From the sequence record MN850614.1: a DNA stretch of 64,000 nt; one strand, written 5' to 3'. This document shows positions 12,294 to 51,881 of the stretch, one piece after another (within the stretch, counting starts at the first letter, position 1; each line of letters begins with the position of its first letter). Both the position numbers and the translations under genes were made by a program. Under the pieces are notes generated by a model, which was not told the DNA's origin, searched no databases, and worked only from the letters and a program-made list of their open reading frames with translations. Origin of the DNA: Escherichia phage adrianh.

Positions 12294-12323
12294 ACATTAC
12301 TGCAAAAAATTATAAAAAGCAAG

Positions 12324-12352
12324 TTGACAATGTACTTGACAAGGTGTTAATC
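12324..12352 (+). promoter_or_regulatory. Sigma70-like promoter in divergent intergenic region
   Basis: TTGACA, 17-nt spacer, TTAATC; contains the ACTTGACAAGGTG motif also present near 28085 and 58190. Confidence 0.45.
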
Positions 12353-12520
12353 TTTGCGAAGTGGGTTTTTACTTAAAAGGTTACTTAACAGTTTAACTAT
12401 ACAGATACTTTAAAACTCTTAAAAGATTATTTAATAGCTTTTAAAAAGCTTTAAAGTATAACGTATAGAATACGTTAAGATAAAAGATTAAAACTTAATA
12501 GTTACTTAAAAGAGGCTTAC

Positions 12521-14759: not shown

Positions 14760-16737
14760 AGGTCGTAAATTGAAAGAGGCTGGTCAGTTTGTTGGTCATT
14801 GTGCATGTCCACGTTGTGGTTCATCAGATGCTGGTTCAATCTATCATCATGACGATGATTCTTATTCGATGACTTGCTTTAGTTGTAAGAAAGGTTTCCC
14901 AGAGTGGGATTTTGATAAAGGACAAATCGTGAGCACTTATTCTACTGGTTCAGACAATAAAAACCGTACTTTCCGTGGAATGGATTTAGACGATGTAAAA
15001 GAAAACCTAGAAGCAATGGACTTGAAAGACAGGAAGATTCCTGCAAAAGTTCTTGAGCGTTTGGGTATTAAGGTTGACATTGACAGTGATGGTGAAATTG
15101 ACGCACATTTCTACCCAACTTACAAACGTAATGAAGATGGTAAGCTAGAACATGTTGGCTACCGTGTTCGTCACCGTTACCCAGAAGACCATCCAAAAGA
15201 GCACCTACGTGGTAAGCTAAAAGACTTTTCTGGTGGTGTTGGAGACATTAAAGGTGAACTGGCAATGTTTGGTTCATGGATTGCTCCAGAAGGTGGTAAC
15301 CGTCTATTCATCTGGGAAGGTGAGATGGAATGTGCGACAGCAATCTACATGACCTCTTTGGCGATTAAAGATAAGTCTCGTCGTAAGAATTACTGTCACG
15401 TATCTGTCCCATCAGGTGCAAACATTAAGTCTATCAAAGACAACTATCAGTACATCACATCATTTGATGAGATTTACTTGTGCTTTGATAACGATGAAGC
15501 AGGTGCTAAAGCTACCAAAGAGGCTGCTGGCATTCTCCCTATCGAGAAGGTTCGTTTATTCCAGTATCCAGAAGGTGTAAAAGACCTTAACGAATGGTGG
15601 ACAAAGTTCTATAAAGAGAAAGATACAGTTCTGGAAGGATTTAAGCAGCGTATCTACAATGCACCTCGTTACTGTCCTGCTGGTATCAAGAACTTCGCAG
15701 ATGGTTTTGAGGCAATGAAGAATCGTGGTCAGATTCCATTGATTCCTTTCCCAGAATCATTCGGAGATTTGAACAGACTGACTTATGGTGGTTATGGACT
15801 AGGTGAGATTACAACTCTGGCAGCACCATCTTCAGTGGGTAAATCAGCATACACTCGTGAAATGATTTACACAGCTTGGAAAGAAACCGATTACAATATT
15901 GGTGTAATTCCTGTAGAAGATACCTATGAAGAGTTGATGGAGATGCTCTGTGCAATCCACCTGAGCAAGCAGATTTCTGAGATTCCTTATGACGAACGTG
16001 ATTGGGATGAATTGAAGGGAGCGCACGCAGAACTATCTAAAGGTCGTCGTATCCACATCGTAGACCATCAAGGGGCAATTGACCAAGATAACTTACTGGA
16101 GTTTGTTGACTATCTTGTTAATAGCTTAGACTGTAAGATTATTATTCTTGACCCTATTACGTTGGCTCTGTCACGTTCAGATACGGATGAAGAGGAAGTT
16201 TTGTCTGAGCTATTGCGTCGTTGCAAACGCTACCAGTATGCACAATTGAACGTCTGTCACGTTCGTAAGAGTGCAGGTGGTCAGAAGGCTAACTCTGAAG
16301 GTGGGGATATCTCTGAAGAGGATATTAAAGGCTCTGGTGCGTATTTCCAGATTTCTATGAACAACATTCTGTTAATGCGTAACAAGGTTGACCCAGACCC
16401 TGTTAAGAAAAACTTGACAAAAATCAAGCTAACTAAATGTCGTCGTCACGGTAAGTCAACGGGTATTGCTGGTCATACTTGGTACAATCCAGATACAGGA
16501 CGCCTCATCAAAGCATCTGGTTGCGGAGTTGACATTGATGGTGCAGCAGAAAATATTCGCCAACAGTTTGGTATTGGTGAAGCTGAAGACCATTACGATG
16601 ACTCTTTGCCACATTATGAGGATGAAGTGTTTGACCGTGAGACTGGTGAAGTCTATACTGAAGAGCAGCGCCAAAGCTCAACGATTCCACCTGTATTAAG
16701 TGAGGATGCAGATGACTGCCCATTCGAAACTGAGTGA
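14746..16737 (+). CDS. Primase-helicase (zinc finger, TOPRIM, DnaB-like helicase)
   Basis: 663 aa; N-terminal zinc ribbon CPRCGSSDAG ... CFSCKKGF; Walker A GKS in the C-terminal half. Confidence 0.8.
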   Translation: MLMSKGRKLKEAGQFVGHCACPRCGSSDAGSIYHHDDDSYSMTCFSCKKGFPEWDFDKGQIVSTYSTGSDNKNRTFRGMDLDDVKENLEAMDLKDRKIPAKVLERLGIKVDIDSDGEIDAHFYPTYKRNEDGKLEHVGYRVRHRYPEDHPKEHLRGKLKDFSGGVGDIKGELAMFGSWIAPEGGNRLFIWEGEMECATAIYMTSLAIKDKSRRKNYCHVSVPSGANIKSIKDNYQYITSFDEIYLCFDNDEAGAKATKEAAGILPIEKVRLFQYPEGVKDLNEWWTKFYKEKDTVLEGFKQRIYNAPRYCPAGIKNFADGFEAMKNRGQIPLIPFPESFGDLNRLTYGGYGLGEITTLAAPSSVGKSAYTREMIYTAWKETDYNIGVIPVEDTYEELMEMLCAIHLSKQISEIPYDERDWDELKGAHAELSKGRRIHIVDHQGAIDQDNLLEFVDYLVNSLDCKIIILDPITLALSRSDTDEEEVLSELLRRCKRYQYAQLNVCHVRKSAGGQKANSEGGDISEEDIKGSGAYFQISMNNILLMRNKVDPDPVKKNLTKIKLTKCRRHGKSTGIAGHTWYNPDTGRLIKASGCGVDIDGAAENIRQQFGIGEAEDHYDDSLPHYEDEVFDRETGEVYTEEQRQSSTIPPVLSEDADDCPFETE

Positions 16738-16993
16738 TAGTTATAAAAGAGAGGGGTTCACACCCTTCTTTGAAGAAAAAAGTTTAAATAAATTTCAGGA
16801 AGAGTGTTTGACAAAGATTGATAGATTCTATAGAATGCTCCTCATGAAATGCGATGGAGAGGTTGAGATAAAAGAAGATTTTCACCAGAGCATGATTACA
16901 GTCATCATTGCGCTGCCTCAGCATAATATTAGTTGGCTGTTTATAATTAAAGAAAATGTGTTTGAATATCAAGTATATCGGAGAATATCATGA
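16712..16993 (+). CDS. Hypothetical protein
   Basis: ORF overlapping the helicase 3' end; ATG at 16712 has GAGGA upstream; weak. Confidence 0.3.
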   Translation: MTAHSKLSDSYKREGFTPFFEEKSLNKFQEECLTKIDRFYRMLLMKCDGEVEIKEDFHQSMITVIIALPQHNISWLFIIKENVFEYQVYRRIS

Positions 16994-17139
16994 AACACTC
17001 TAAAGCATTTGAAAAAGTTTTTGGGGATTCCTTAAAAGCCACTGCTGGAAAACCAGCAAAATACTATGAAGAAAAACGTGTAAGAACTGGAAAAACTGCA
17101 CGTAAAGCAGCTTCTAAAGATAAGCACAACTTCCAGTAA
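16990..17139 (+). CDS. Small basic protein (49 aa), not in the ORF track
   Basis: ATG at 16990 with GGAG upstream; 49 Lys-rich codons; below the 60-aa cutoff. Confidence 0.3.
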   Translation: MKHSKAFEKVFGDSLKATAGKPAKYYEEKRVRTGKTARKAASKDKHNFQ

Positions 17140-17211
17140 TTAGTATTTGACAATAGAGTATCAACAAATTAGAATTGGTACTCTTCATAAATTGAGATAG
17201 AGGTCTAAATA

Positions 17212-18069
17212 ATGTCTAAAGTTGTTAAAATGAAAGCTCCGGTAGAGAAGTACAACGGTACTGAACGTCAAACTCTGCGTTACCTGCTGAAAGATGTCTG
17301 GTTTTATTACCTGAACACTTCACCACGTCCGGGAAAAGGTAAGTCTATTGATAAAAAATTCCCAGGAAAAGATTGTAACTACAGCGTATCAATTCTGGCA
17401 GAAGACGGTAACAAGCTCTTTAAAGAGTTTACTAAGTCTAAGAAAAATCCAGAAGGCTGGGATAAAGTTACTACTGAAGCAGTTGACGCAGATGACTTTG
17501 AAGAGAAGTTTGGTTGTAAGCCACCTTTTGAAGCAGACACTTACTACATCTTGAAAGTAAGTCGTGCAGCAGCTTATAAAGATGGTGCTGTATGGACAGC
17601 TAAACAGTCATTCCCTGTAATGCTGATTGAAGAAGTAAATGGTAAGCGTGTAGCTGTTAAGCAGCCGATGAAGAAAATCAAAGCTCAAGCATCTGATAAA
17701 CATGAAGATGACAAGAACTATGATGTAATTCATCCAGATATCGCAGTTGGTAATGGTTCTTTTGGTAGTGTGATTCTTTCTACTCACTTCTACACTTTTG
17801 AGAACAATGTTCTGACAAAACCTATTCAGGAACAGTTTATCATTGATACTCTTGTACCTTACACTGGTGGTAACGGTGCTAATGGTGAACCTGAACTTGA
17901 TGAAGATGAACTGGCTATGCTTGGTCTTGATGGTGTTGAAGATAACGGTGAAATCACTGAAGAAGACGCAACAGACCATAAACCTTCGAATGCTTCTGAT
18001 GATGGTGATGATGAAGATTTGCCAGACCCAGATGACGAAGAAGATGAAGACTTCGATACAGAAGATTAA
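17212..18069 (+). CDS. Putative ssDNA-binding protein with acidic C-terminal tail
   Basis: 285 aa; C-terminus is a long Asp/Glu run ending DEDFDTED, as in phage SSBs; position between helicase and nuclease. Confidence 0.4.
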   Translation: MSKVVKMKAPVEKYNGTERQTLRYLLKDVWFYYLNTSPRPGKGKSIDKKFPGKDCNYSVSILAEDGNKLFKEFTKSKKNPEGWDKVTTEAVDADDFEEKFGCKPPFEADTYYILKVSRAAAYKDGAVWTAKQSFPVMLIEEVNGKRVAVKQPMKKIKAQASDKHEDDKNYDVIHPDIAVGNGSFGSVILSTHFYTFENNVLTKPIQEQFIIDTLVPYTGGNGANGEPELDEDELAMLGLDGVEDNGEITEEDATDHKPSNASDDGDDEDLPDPDDEEDEDFDTED

Positions 18070-38907: not shown

Positions 38908-39580
38908 TGAAGTATTGTGCCATGCTTATGACTTACATCCTCATGAGTTAGTTCTTGATTCCTGTGTATGGACTCCAGAACAGTGCAGGGATTTTGAAGA
39001 CACCGCAAGAGAAGTTGTATGTTCACTTGAAGAGTTCCACACATCAGAGCCAATTGTGAATGTTGTAGATAAAGAGACTGGACAAACTATAGGTGTAAGT
39101 CGTGATAGCTTAGTCATAGTCAATAAAGACCTTGTAGAAAAAGGTAACCTCATCTTAGCAGATATTGATGGTGTTCTTACAAATTTTAATCACGAAGATT
39201 GCTCAACGGAATTGACTGATGGGTCATTCTCACAGTACACTAATCTTCTTGACTCTGTAAGAGCAAAACCAACGTATGTCTTTAGTATTATTGATGCAAT
39301 TGCTAATCATGCTGCCATTGGACTCTTGACAGCGAGAGGTGAATCTCAGAGAATACCTACTGAGATGTTTTTAAGGCACAATATAGAGCATGATTACTTG
39401 CTTTTTATGCGTGGTTTTGGAACTAACTCTATAAGTGCAGAAAGTTTGAAAGTGAGGATGATTCAGTCTTGCATTCTTCCTTACTTTAATATAGTATGTT
39501 TTATAGAAGATACAGAGAAGAATGTTCAGAAGGTAAACAGAATCCTTCCACACATTAAAACCATGTTAGTTAAACACTGA
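38885..39580 (+). CDS. HAD-family hydrolase-like protein
   Basis: 231 aa; ILADIDGVL resembles HAD motif I (DxDG). Confidence 0.35.
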   Translation: MKKLRKSDEVLCHAYDLHPHELVLDSCVWTPEQCRDFEDTAREVVCSLEEFHTSEPIVNVVDKETGQTIGVSRDSLVIVNKDLVEKGNLILADIDGVLTNFNHEDCSTELTDGSFSQYTNLLDSVRAKPTYVFSIIDAIANHAAIGLLTARGESQRIPTEMFLRHNIEHDYLLFMRGFGTNSISAESLKVRMIQSCILPYFNIVCFIEDTEKNVQKVNRILPHIKTMLVKH

Positions 39581-48573: not shown

Positions 48574-48837
48574 ATGGAAAACGTAGAATTAACCACACTT
48601 TTACAAATTGCAACCGACAAAGAAGATGTAGCATTATTCCACCGTATCGAAAGTGATTTGTTCAATGGTGAAATCATCAAAGAATCTTATGAAGTTGTCG
48701 GATTCAAAGATGGTAAAGCGTTTGGCTTTTTTGACCTCGACAAAGGCAACGCGGTTGCAAAATATGATGTTTTATCTTGTGAGATTCTTACAAAATACAA
48801 CGAAAAAAGGCTTGCAACATACGCCAACATGCAGTAA
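48574..48837 (+). CDS. Hypothetical protein (small-gene array 13)
   Basis: 87 aa. Confidence 0.5.
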   Translation: MENVELTTLLQIATDKEDVALFHRIESDLFNGEIIKESYEVVGFKDGKAFGFFDLDKGNAVAKYDVLSCEILTKYNEKRLATYANMQ

Positions 48838-48903
48838 ATTACTAATCAACGGGAGGCGACAACCTCCCCACTAAATAAAACCCTTAAACTAGGAGATTCA
48901 AAA
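48832..48903 (+). promoter_or_regulatory. Type B cassette, copy 6 (loop variant)
   Basis: Stem GGGAGG/CCTCCC kept while the loop changes to CGACAA. Confidence 0.5.
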
Positions 48904-49152
48904 ATGGCAACTATCCGCGCTACTGTTAACGAGTTCGGTTTTTCCTCTCTGGATGTTAAATTTGACATTGTAGGCACTGATAACGCCTTTGAAATGGTGA
49001 AAGGTCTTATCAGTCAGACCATCAAAGGCTATAATCCTTCTAAGGAGTTCTGGGAGGAAACAAAACAGGAAGTTCTTAAGGATGGTTACACTTATCACTA
49101 TTGGGGAGAAAAAATCGTCTCCCTGTACTACGACAAACAAGATTATAACTAA
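48904..49152 (+). CDS. Hypothetical protein (small-gene array 14)
   Basis: 82 aa. Confidence 0.5.
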   Translation: MATIRATVNEFGFSSLDVKFDIVGTDNAFEMVKGLISQTIKGYNPSKEFWEETKQEVLKDGYTYHYWGEKIVSLYYDKQDYN

Positions 49153-49191
49153 TCGGCGCAGCGGGGCTAAATAGCCCCAGATACCTTTACA

Positions 49192-49217
49192 GCCCCTTTC
49201 CCATAGGGGCTTTTTTA
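49192..49217 (+). terminator. Rho-independent terminator closing the plus-strand block
   Basis: GCCCCT-TTCCCAT-AGGGGC hairpin followed by TTTTTT. Confidence 0.65.
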
Positions 49218-49219
49218 CG

Positions 49220-50780
49220 TCTATCCAATCCTCATACAACCCCTTTCCCTTTCCTTTCCAGAATCTTATCAGACCTTAAAAAGCAATAACTTTACAGCCT
49301 TTTACTAAGTCAATTAATTGGCCTTATTAATAAGCCCTTAAACATAAGCCAATAACCCCAGAAAGGGGGCAACCCATTTAAACGCCATATAAAGCCCTAT
49401 AACGGCCTTTTTAACCTAACTTAAGGGATTGCATTACCTCACCCTTAAAAGCCCTTTATAAAGCTTCACAGAGCCTTAAAAGAATCTTATAAGGGTGTAA
49501 GCTTTATTATCTCGTTAGCTATCTTGTGAACTACTAAACAACCCCCTTGATAGTAACTGAAAAGTATGTTATAGGGGCTTTAAAGTTACTTTGAAGTATC
49601 TTAAGAGTTACGTAAATGCTAGCCCCCTTAACATTCTCTTAACAATTTCTTAACAATCCCTACATAGTTATGCTTTTAAGGCACTTGTTAGCAACTTGTT
49701 AGCCCCTTGTTAAATCTCTGTTAAGACCACGTAAAAGCCTTGTAAGAGTCTTTGACATAGCCTTTAAAGCTTCTGTAAAGCCTTATAAAGAGGTGTCTGT
49801 ACAGTTGGGGTGTAACTACTAGTGAGAGACTTAAAAGAGCTTACAAGGAGCTATAGAGAGCTTTTAAGAGGTATGTTTAAGGAATCACTAAGAAAGGAAA
49901 GGGAACGATAAGAAAAGAGTAGTGACCATGTTAATAGCTTGTTAAAAAGATTAAACACTTGTTAGAAACTTGTTAATTATCTTAACAAAATAACTCTTTA
50001 AAATTAACTTGTTAGCTCTTGTTAGTCATCTGTTAAGCCTCTGTAAAGACTATTCAGCACTTGTTAATTGGTATTGTTACCAATCCCTAGAAAACTGTTA
50101 AGCCCTTGTCAGTTCTGTTAAGAAACTGTTAAGACCTTTGAAGAGTTGTTAAGAAGATGTGAGAACTGTTAAGAGATTGTTAAGGATATTTTAAAATTTT
50201 GCAAAGGGGATGTTACAGGGATGTTAAGGGCTACCAAGCAGATATACATCCTCTACAGATATTTTTCAGTTCCTTCAAAGACCCTAAAAAAAAAATGACT
50301 TGACAGTCTTATTTTATAAAAATTTTAAAATTCTGAATAATTACCTAGACAGTCTTTTAAAAATACAGGTAGAAACAGGCTTATAAGATACCTTGTTAGT
50401 ACCGTGTTAGACCTTGTGAGATAAGGTCTGTGAAGATATTCCTGTTAAGTTTGTTAAAACAGCCTATATAGAGGCTTAGTAATACCTAGTGAACACCTAT
50501 AGAGGGTAACATAGCTAACCTAGAGATTAAGAGGTGTATAGGAGCTTCTAAGAGTGTGTAGAGAGATGGTTAAGGTGATTGTATAGGTTGTTAAGAAGGC
50601 TTGTTAGAAGAGTGTTTAGAAGGCTTGTTAGAGGGCTAGTTAGAAGGGTTATACAGAGGGGCTATTAAGACCACTAGATAGTTACTAAGATACTATATAG
50701 TACTATATAACTATATATAGAGAGTAAGATTAAGAAGGTTGTTAAGAAGGGTAGATATTTTATTCACATATGATGGTGAC
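49220..50780. repeat. ORF-free region dense in short direct repeats (iteron-like)
   Basis: No ORF of 60 aa or more on either strand over about 1.6 kb; 49220-49520 rich in AGCC(C/T)TTWWAA-type motifs; 49520-50700 carries more than 25 copies of YTGTTARG; AT-rich ACTATATA repeats at about 50690-50725. Confidence 0.6.
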
Positions 50781-50854
50781 CCAGAGGTTGGGACAACCGA
50801 TAAAATTTTATAAAAATTAAAAAGCCCCCCAATTAAGGAGGCTCTTAAGATATT

Positions 50855-51460
50855 TTAAATGAGTGTTTCCAGAACTGTCTTCAGTGATGACTTGGTTGTC
50901 TGATAAAAATGAGTGAAGCCATTGTTGTTATCAAACACCTGCATCATGATACCATCTCCCTTGATTGGGTACACTCGGATATCATAGTGAAACCCATTAA
51001 AGACAGCAGAACCACTACAGAATGAACTAAAATCATCTACTGAGATGTACTCTTCATGACCTGTGATTTTTATACAAACACCTTTACTCGGTCTCTTAGG
51101 GTTGATATCTTCCATCACAGACATATTCTGTCCACCAAGAGATACCATAGTGACCACTTTACGGTTCTTCTGTCTGAAGTACATTTTAACTTTCTGCAAG
51201 GTGTCTTCATAGAACGGATAAGACTTCTCTACAAAGATTCCTTCAAGTGGCTCTTTACCGTTTACAATACCTCTGGTATGTCGTACTGAGAAGATAAGTT
51301 GCTCTAGCAGGTCAAGGCTTTCTTCGGATAGTGCTTCCCTAATATCATTCCAATCAAGTACTAGGTAGTTACCTTCAACATCTTTTAAGTTATCTTTTTC
51401 CATATCTATCACACCATTATCGTAAAACTTGGTAAGCTGGGACTGCAAACTTGTTGCCAT
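50855..51460 (-). CDS. Hypothetical protein
   Basis: 201 aa, last gene of the minus-strand operon. Confidence 0.55.
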   Translation of the reverse strand: MATSLQSQLTKFYDNGVIDMEKDNLKDVEGNYLVLDWNDIREALSEESLDLLEQLIFSVRHTRGIVNGKEPLEGIFVEKSYPFYEDTLQKVKMYFRQKNRKVVTMVSLGGQNMSVMEDINPKRPSKGVCIKITGHEEYISVDDFSSFCSGSAVFNGFHYDIRVYPIKGDGIMMQVFDNNNGFTHFYQTTKSSLKTVLETLI

Positions 51461-51881
51461 TGTTCTTAATGAGGTCTTCTTCTGTTACTAAGAATGTAAT
51501 CCCACATAAGTGTGTGTAGTGGCTATCATACTCAAATATTTTAAGTAAGTATTTACCATCGTGATAAACAGATTCTACTACACCTTTTGCAACAATCTTT
51601 CCAGTCTTGAAATCTTTAAGAGGGTATACATTACCAACTTTAGGAACTGTTTTCATCTCAGATTCTTTTAGCTTCTCACCAGCTTCTACATCACCTAGTA
51701 AGTGAGAACTTTCAAACGCTACATATTGCATATAAGCCTCTGAGCATTCCCAGATAAAACAATGTACAAGAACCTTAGCAGCATGTCTTGAACAATTCAA
51801 CTTATCACAAATCTCTTTGTACATTTCGTCTTTAGTTGAGTTATCAAGCATTGCTTTTTGAACGACTTCTTTAATTTTCAT
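51417..51881 (-). CDS. Hypothetical protein
   Basis: 154 aa. Confidence 0.5.
   Translation of the reverse strand: MKIKEVVQKAMLDNSTKDEMYKEICDKLNCSRHAAKVLVHCFIWECSEAYMQYVAFESSHLLGDVEAGEKLKESEMKTVPKVGNVYPLKDFKTGKIVAKGVVESVYHDGKYLLKIFEYDSHYTHLCGITFLVTEEDLIKNNGNKFAVPAYQVLR

Follow-up and report, generated by a model that had tools for sequence, protein, structure and literature searches.

Three described systems come closest to the element considered here. In phage T7, phi1.1A/B act as primary replication origins and phiOR and phi6.5 as secondary ones; an origin phi10 is also mentioned, and phiOR is able to serve as the sole origin of a plasmid (PMC8373140). Iteron origins of plasmids and lambdoid phages combine direct repeats with an adjacent, easily melted AT-rich element, and the injection-stop (iss) region of phage T5 lies at a terminal-repeat border (10.1101/866236). 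We analysed a 64,000-nucleotide stretch of DNA from Escherichia phage adrianh (record MN850614.1; hereafter the window) and concentrated on a short block of AT-rich tandem repeats at 50690–50725, which the original prediction had proposed as a possible unwinding element of an iteron-type origin. The block is conserved and exceptionally easy to melt, and it belongs to the control region around the direct terminal repeat (DTR), not to a classic iteron origin. From its sequence, it is a plausible start site for DNA replication, and it may also feed the duplication of the terminal repeat.

The block is built of three units (Table 1). The string TACTATATAGTACTATATAACTATATATAGAGAG occupies 50691–50724, and the 8-mer ACTATATA starts on the plus strand at 50692, 50702 and 50710. 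With both strands counted, the window has four matches to this 8-mer, and none lies outside the block. It is the sole 8-mer of the 64 kb with at least three copies inside 30 bp, and such a triple arose in 0 of 100 dinucleotide-preserving shuffles. Tandem Repeats Finder described the block either as 3.3 copies of a 10-bp period or as 2.9 copies of an 8-bp period. The block is clearly non-random: the AT-rich tandem repeat that had been predicted is real, and of the three or four units proposed for it, three is the correct count. The CTATATA cores of the units lie 8–11 bp apart, about one helical turn, and unit 3 has the form AC(TA)nGAGAG, with n = 4 in the window. The units are dyad-symmetric (ACTATATAGT, CTATATATAG), and CTATATAG is present in a single copy in the window besides the block. 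That ACTATATA or CTATATAG might be a general phage promoter motif was rejected because of their absence elsewhere in the 64 kb.

We profiled duplex stability over the whole window with nearest-neighbour free energies. The block was the single least stable segment of the 64 kb at lengths of 20, 30, 36 and 50 bp (z = 3.8–4.5). A helical-stability profile had been proposed as a check of the original prediction, and over the 20–50 bp range it came out in favour of an easily melted duplex. As a control, we applied the same measure to T7. In the T7 genome, each of the eight 30-mers with the lowest stability adjoins a promoter named as an origin: phiOL (427, 363), phi1.1B (5961), phiOR (39250, 39333), phi6.5 (18564, 18599) and phi10 (22926); phiOL, too, counts as a secondary origin. 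Thus, the measure finds the melting zones of origins in a T7-type system, and the block resembles the AT zones of T7 origins in being a local or global minimum of duplex stability.

The phage of the window is a Felixounavirus. Region 49100–51500 matched 256 phage records (top match 94%, Escherichia phage LinBro), and the records that we opened were Felix O1-like myoviruses of the subfamily Ounavirinae. We aligned 26 sequences, 25 of them from relatives (20 from IMG/VR, the others GenBank records). Mean identity to the window was 87% over the non-coding region, and the 620 bp from the terminal repeat to the terminator were 92–100% identical except in a 12-bp array, which exceeds the conservation of the flanking coding DNA. 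CTATTAAGACCACTAGATAGnTACTAAGATACTATATAGTACTATATAAC(TA)nGAGAGTAAG was essentially invariant in the 26 Felixounavirus sequences, and only the (TA)n tract varied (n = 3–6). The neighbouring 12-bp TGTTAG array, unlike the block, gained and lost units across the same relatives.

Conservation extends to other genera. The block is exactly retained in Suspvirus CHB7, and in Mooglevirus CTATATAGATACTATATAATACTATATAGAGA keeps three CTATATA cores (spacings 11 and 10 bp) but not the 16-bp palindrome of the window sequence. In these two genera the neighbouring protein is only 41–49% identical and the surrounding non-coding DNA is about 76% identical; the homologous block is the least stable 30-mer of the Suspvirus and Mooglevirus loci too. 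A scan of viral contigs for three copies of CTATATA returned mostly unrelated low-complexity tandem repeats and yielded extra Mooglevirus copies.

The block also shows a direct sequence likeness to a T7 origin zone. When the whole T7 genome was searched on both strands, the best local match to the element was at 39250–39284, 21 bp past the phiOR start (CTATATAGATACT...ATACT.TATAGAG). Against T7, the Mooglevirus element scored 40 (chunk mean 14.6, standard deviation 2.9, next best 26) and the window element scored 29 (next unrelated site 20); 0 of 200 shuffled queries reached the element scores at the T7 ends. The two phages have a replisome type in common, a gp4-like primase-helicase with a family A polymerase: the primase-helicase of the window is homologous to T7 gp4A along its full length (28% identity over 599 residues, E = 9e-45) and its polymerase is related to T7 gp5 (E = 5e-13). 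The large terminase of Bas63, a complete relative, showed no similarity to T7 gp19 (E = 0.78). Because the gp4 and gp5 proteins are homologous and the terminases are not, a cis element common to both phages would accompany the replication proteins and not the packaging enzyme. Shared ancestry with the T7 packaging enzyme was rejected, as the terminases are unrelated.

The block lies within a non-coding tract of about 1.6 kb between two convergent operons. The tract has no open reading frames (ORFs) of at least 40 codons from the end of a plus-strand gene at 49152 to the stop codon of a minus-strand gene at 50855, and the transcription units on both sides are directed toward it, each closed by an intrinsic terminator. 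The original prediction offered, as the fallback should the block not unwind, that it belongs to the AT-rich promoter of the adjacent minus-strand operon. This is wrong because the tract is the 3' end of that operon, whose stop codon (50855) and terminator (50846–50820) both lie there.

The terminal repeat occupies the centre of this layout. Several database records start at the position matching 49622, and in vB_EcoM_D4 and Ro111lw (records PP886228 and MH571750) the first 581 and 613 bp are exactly repeated at the other end; both repeats map to 49622–50235. The window therefore carries the genome ends in their concatemer-junction form. PhageTerm called direct terminal repeats in vB_EcoM_D4 (PMC11737134) and a 613-bp DTR in Ro111lw (PMC6454146), and Bal31 digestion with run-off sequencing gave a 608-bp DTR in UAB_Phi87 (PMC4837284), whose homologous segment measures 614 bp in our alignment. 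In 22 genomes the segment homologous to the DTR is 569–658 bp long with invariant borders: the first falls between ...AAATGCTA and GCCCCCTTAACA, and the second between ...GGGCTACC, with which the DTR finishes, and AAGCAGATATACA. The left genome end begins GCCCCCTTAACATT. The block is 455 bp from the DTR border, inside unique DNA, and the phiOR zone is 528 bp from the terminal repeat of T7.

Copies of a short motif, YTGTTARG, fill and flank the DTR. With at most one mismatch there are 49 of them in 49150–50860, five times the density elsewhere, most commonly spaced 11 and 20 bp apart, about one and two helical turns. Their strand flips at about 49660–49665: left of this point every copy is on the minus strand, right of it almost every copy is on the plus strand, and the GC skew changes sign at the flip. 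Given their position in and around the DTR, the repeats may serve end formation or packaging.

This arrangement is reminiscent of the T7 ends, where a 160-bp terminal repeat has CCTAAAG arrays inside and in both flanks. Both phages have a short exact terminal repeat, arrays of a 7–8 bp motif spaced by about one turn inside it and on both sides, and AT-rich zones further out, which in T7 follow the promoters phiOL and phiOR. They differ in the motif itself, in its change of orientation at about 49665, in the two flanking operons, both of which are transcribed toward the repeat here, and in the lack of a large terminase of the T7 family. The T5 iss region is likewise similar: a conserved non-coding stretch of about 1.2–1.7 kb with direct repeats and palindromes, it straddles the terminal-repeat border and is better conserved than the neighbouring genes, as is the tract here (10.1101/866236). 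T5 differs in having paired DnaA boxes and a two-step injection with A1 and A2, where the present tract has a single, non-conserved DnaA box.

Taken together, we favour, tentatively, a reading in which the block is the unwinding or helicase-entry zone of an end-proximal origin of the T7 style. In this role it would correspond to the AT-rich zone that accompanies phiOR and other T7-type origins. The duplex would open first at the block, aided by negative supercoiling or passing transcription; a primase-helicase of the T7 gp4 type and a family A polymerase would then gain entry, and replication would begin near the concatemer junction. A start near the junction would also supply synthesis for duplicating the terminal repeat before packaging. 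We infer opening at the block in vivo, the start of replication there and the link to repeat duplication from the features described above. The tolerated length variation of (TA)n suggests that a melting role fits better than a rigid protein site.

Several observations weigh against an origin at the block. It has the AT zone and the gp4/family A replisome of a T7-type origin and lacks the upstream promoter for a phage RNA polymerase: each T7 origin has a T7 RNA polymerase promoter just upstream (PMC8373140), whereas here there is only a weak sigma-70-like match. No promoter reaching our scan threshold of 9/12 was found ahead of the block, the best match scoring 8/12 and losing its −35-like hexamer in Suspvirus. 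The complete annotation of Bas63 contains no RNA polymerase and no initiator, and the Felix O1 genome paper reported no phage RNA polymerase. The DnaA-box match is altered in relatives: 5 of the 26 aligned sequences have TTGTTCACA in its place, and Suspvirus and Mooglevirus have TTATCACA. Erwinia phage phiEa21-4 retains the border motif AAGCAGATATACA, the TGTTAAG arrays and a counterpart of the AT island at 50308–50343, but the ACTATATA block was not found in it. The matching part of the phiOR zone is variable in more distant T7-like phages, and the conserved core of the zone in those relatives (TACTGAATGAATA) is absent from this phage; the resemblance to phiOR may be convergent or due to chance among TA-rich sequences. 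Exact-sequence conservation and dyad-symmetric units fit a sequence-specific protein site too. The window also holds a rival candidate for the main origin at 12294–12520, and both this region and the AT island at 50308–50343 are nearly as unstable as the block and equally plausible as origins. Finally, our literature searches found nothing on the Felix O1 origin, on its transcription start sites or on this non-coding region, and no published experiment on any Ounavirinae origin.

Does the block then belong to an iteron origin? As in those origins, direct repeats stand beside an AT-rich block of about three units with a DnaA-box match near it. Unlike the 17–22 bp repeats of iteron origins, the core here is 8 bp, spaced 11 or 20 bp, and its 49 copies extend over 1.7 kb in opposite orientations, so the repeats are not classic iterons as had been supposed. 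Nor does the block come immediately after the last YTGTTARG: a one-mismatch copy, CTATTAAG, precedes it at 50662, a perfect TTGTTAAG follows at 50739, and the block therefore lies within the repeat field. We found no initiator gene; none is annotated in Bas63, and the genes flanking the block encode small hypothetical proteins, which were not profiled singly. A DnaA-box cluster was rejected, as the box is single and not conserved. The block lacks defining features of both iteron and T7 origins. What survives of the unwinding element that was predicted is its easy melting, in agreement with the stability minimum, the conservation, the position among phased short repeats, the T7 calibration and the likeness to the phiOR zone; the classic iteron setting does not.

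A role in end formation is the most serious alternative, although we consider it unlikely. The block would then be a binding or bending site for an end-forming protein (the terminase, an unrecognised small terminase or a host architectural protein) that acts with the TGTTAAG arrays and has no direct role in replication. The location 455 bp from the DTR border, in a 1.6-kb tract whose repeats fill and flank the DTR, suits this explanation, as do the exact retention of the dyad-symmetric sequences ACTATATAGT and CTATATATAG, the further conserved CTATATAG at 50464, and the core spacing of 8–11 bp, close to one helical turn. Conserved, repeat-rich non-coding DNA with a link to packaging or injection also accompanies the terminal repeats of T7 and T5, and annotation in this phage group lists no small terminase (complete Bas63 annotation). 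However, the terminase is not T7-like, which leaves the likeness to the phiOR zone unexplained, and changes in (TA)n length shift spacing and helical phase yet are tolerated. In addition, the region has no IHF consensus site, and phiEa21-4 has the border motif and the arrays but not the block.

The border motif and the arrays may themselves take part in end formation. AAGCAGATATACA, with an exact copy in phiEa21-4 at 17467 (17467–17479 of locus L156), is likely, judging from its position and conservation, to be a recognition or cutting signal. The TGTTAAG-family motif keeps opposite orientations on either side of the DTR as far as phiEa21-4, a Kolesnikvirus (16500–17880 of the same locus), where TTCTAA-type copies lie to the left and TGTTAAG copies to the right. 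This retention of motif and orientation implies a conserved binding protein. In the GenBank record of phage garuso, the repeat_region features are the TGTTAAG arrays and not the ACTATATA block.

We regard it as improbable that a promoter for host RNA polymerase (TTAAGA-18-GATACT, start at about 50701) has its core and first transcribed bases in the block. From such a promoter a short rightward transcript would run to about 50820–50850 and possibly encode the 16-codon ORF at 50770–50820 or act as a small RNA. The −10 hexamer GATACT is that of T7 A1, TT(T/A)AGA precedes it by 17–18 bp in Felixounavirus and Mooglevirus, and the 130 bp downstream are 95–99% conserved. Yet a match of 8/12 is below the scan threshold, its −35-like hexamer does not persist in Suspvirus, and several matches just as good lie close by on either strand, which is no surprise in a TA-rich sequence. 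Transcript data for the region were not found in the literature. The ORF, MMVTQRLGQPIKFYKN, is on the plus strand between the block and the terminator; in Mooglevirus its frame and ends (MVTQ...KFYK) are kept, which favours the promoter, and its middle differs. It has no obvious ribosome-binding site at a usable distance, and the same stretch could equally be a DNA signal. Rfam gave no match at E ≤ 1 (48800–51200, both strands), which tells against this reading; a structured RNA was rejected on this blank and because the plus strand is purine-rich with few C, a composition poor for pairing.

It is very unlikely that the block is a TA-rich microsatellite prone to slippage, functionless in itself and situated inside a conserved region. 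Close relatives do carry three to six TA copies, but units 1 and 2 are invariant in 26 of 26 sequences, and genera whose flanks have diverged by about 24% still show the three-unit layout; a neutral TA tract would not remain so fixed. A hairpin or cruciform extruded by the palindrome, with a part in priming or marking DTR duplication as proposed for the T7 concatemer hairpin, is equally hard to credit and was rejected: the perfect 16-bp palindrome is joined by a 10-bp one, and PMC4281155, citing Chung and Hinkle 1990, reports a hairpin intermediate in T7 concatemer processing, but single-stranded DNA of the block folds at only −3.4 to −4.1 kcal/mol, no better than shuffles (z ~0), and the 16-bp palindrome is not kept in Mooglevirus.

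A bolder combination of these ideas strikes us as a long shot. An unknown subfamily-wide protein would coat the opposed TGTTAAG arrays, the ACTATATA block would be a host-polymerase-dependent counterpart of phiOR whose firing into the concatemer junction duplicates the repeat, and the 1.6-kb tract would work as one machine for replication and end formation. If this were true, the T7 likeness would represent a cis element travelling with gp4-type primase-helicases across otherwise unrelated phage families.

Returning to the favoured reading of the block as the melting zone of an end-proximal origin, the analysis yields three origin candidates, ranked 50690–50725, 50308–50343 and 12294–12520. 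The counterpart of 50308–50343 in phiEa21-4 (17601–17640 of locus L156) ranks second for instability in 45 kb. In the window, 12400–12510 is also among the least stable stretches after the block, and 12294–12520 is the least stable stretch at lengths of 100–200 bp. This last region separates the DNA polymerase gene (minus strand) from the operon that includes the primase-helicase gene (plus strand), which are divergently transcribed.

Phages of the Felix O1 type have wide use in Salmonella and E. coli typing, in biocontrol and in therapy, and their engineering has begun (Bas63). The literature that we found describes no replication origin or packaging signal for them and no role for their large, conserved non-coding region. 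The accessible part of the Bas63 gene-essentiality screen, whose guides were designed per gene, reports no data for the tract. If the block is an origin element, a T7-style AT zone near the genome end can work without a phage RNA polymerase, and the block would mark DNA that genome engineers must leave undisturbed.

Table 1. Features of the non-coding tract around the terminal repeat (positions in the window; a dot marks features without a strand)
Feature	Position	Strand	Remarks
Intrinsic terminator, end of plus-strand operon	49191–49211	+	annotated terminator in phages Tribble and Mordin
Non-coding flank, right genome end	49212–49621	-	YTGTTARG-family copies all on minus strand; plus strand C-rich (GC skew)
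Direct terminal repeat (DTR) of virion DNA	49622–50235	.	614 bp; single copy in the collapsed window
Three TGTTAAG copies, 11-bp period, very start of DTR	49627–49658	-	repeat_region in phage garuso
YTGTTARG arrays inside DTR, mostly 11 and 20 bp spacing	49673–50230	+	
AAGCAGATATACA, candidate end-cutting signal	50236–50248	.	directly after DTR border; invariant in 22 genomes including Mooglevirus
Second AT-rich island CTTATTTTATAAAAATTTTAAAATTCTGAATAATTA	50308–50343	.	73 bp inside DTR border; second least stable 30- and 36-bp segment in 64 kb
TGTTAG/TGTTAAG arrays mixed with TATAGAG-type motifs	50389–50650	+	
CTATATAG, 8-bp palindrome in context CCTATATAGAGGC	50464–50471	.	kept in three genera
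12-bp tandem array TTGTTAGAAGGC, 4.9 copies	50588–50647	+	copy number varies among relatives
Weak sigma-70-like match TTAAGA-18-GATACT, 8/12	50665–50694	+	start would fall inside the AT block
AT-rich tandem block ATACTATATAG TACTATATA ACTATATATAGAGAG	50690–50725	.	three CTATATA cores, starts 50693, 50703, 50711
Perfect 16-bp palindrome TATATAGTACTATATA from units 1 and 2	50694–50709	.	unique in window
(TA)4 microsatellite inside unit 3	50712–50719	.	3–6 copies in relatives (alignment)
Last perfect TTGTTAAG copy, right of block	50739–50746	+	motif scan
TTATTCACA, match to DnaA-box consensus TTWTNCACA	50760–50768	+	43 bp from block; one of three such boxes in 64 kb
Intrinsic terminator, end of minus-strand operon	50820–50846	-	operon stop codon at 50855

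Some further observations concern the candidates and the repeats. Two copies of GACAGTCTT stand 46 bp apart around the second AT island (50300–50356), in the contexts TTGACAGTCTT and CTAGACAGTCTT; for TTGACA in this stretch we found no usable −10 hexamer 16–18 bp away. The intergenic region at 12294–12520 likewise carries TTGACA hexamers, together with several ACTTAAAAG/CTTAACAG motifs like those near the DTR. Gain and loss of whole units in the array at 50588–50647 accounts for the main length variation to the right of the DTR in close relatives. Within the DTR, a CTGTTAAG copy contains the only ATCTGTT (50028–50034). These seven bases form the core of the class II pause and termination signal of T7 RNA polymerase at the T7 concatemer junction; as the annotation has no polymerase of the T7 type, the match is probably a coincidence.

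Dam and restriction sites are strongly avoided in the 64-kb window. GATC does not occur at all in 1–64000, where dinucleotide shuffles predict about 183 copies (minimum 161); GAATTC, CTGCAG and GGATCC are missing too, and CCWGG is present only twice. Another phage has a layout of short repeats beside an AT-rich block comparable to that described here: in the unrelated IMG/VR contig 3300028640_000004 (92 kb; about 850–1000 of locus L060), five tandem copies of ACTGGACAGAA are followed by CTATATA-type AT-rich repeats near the end.

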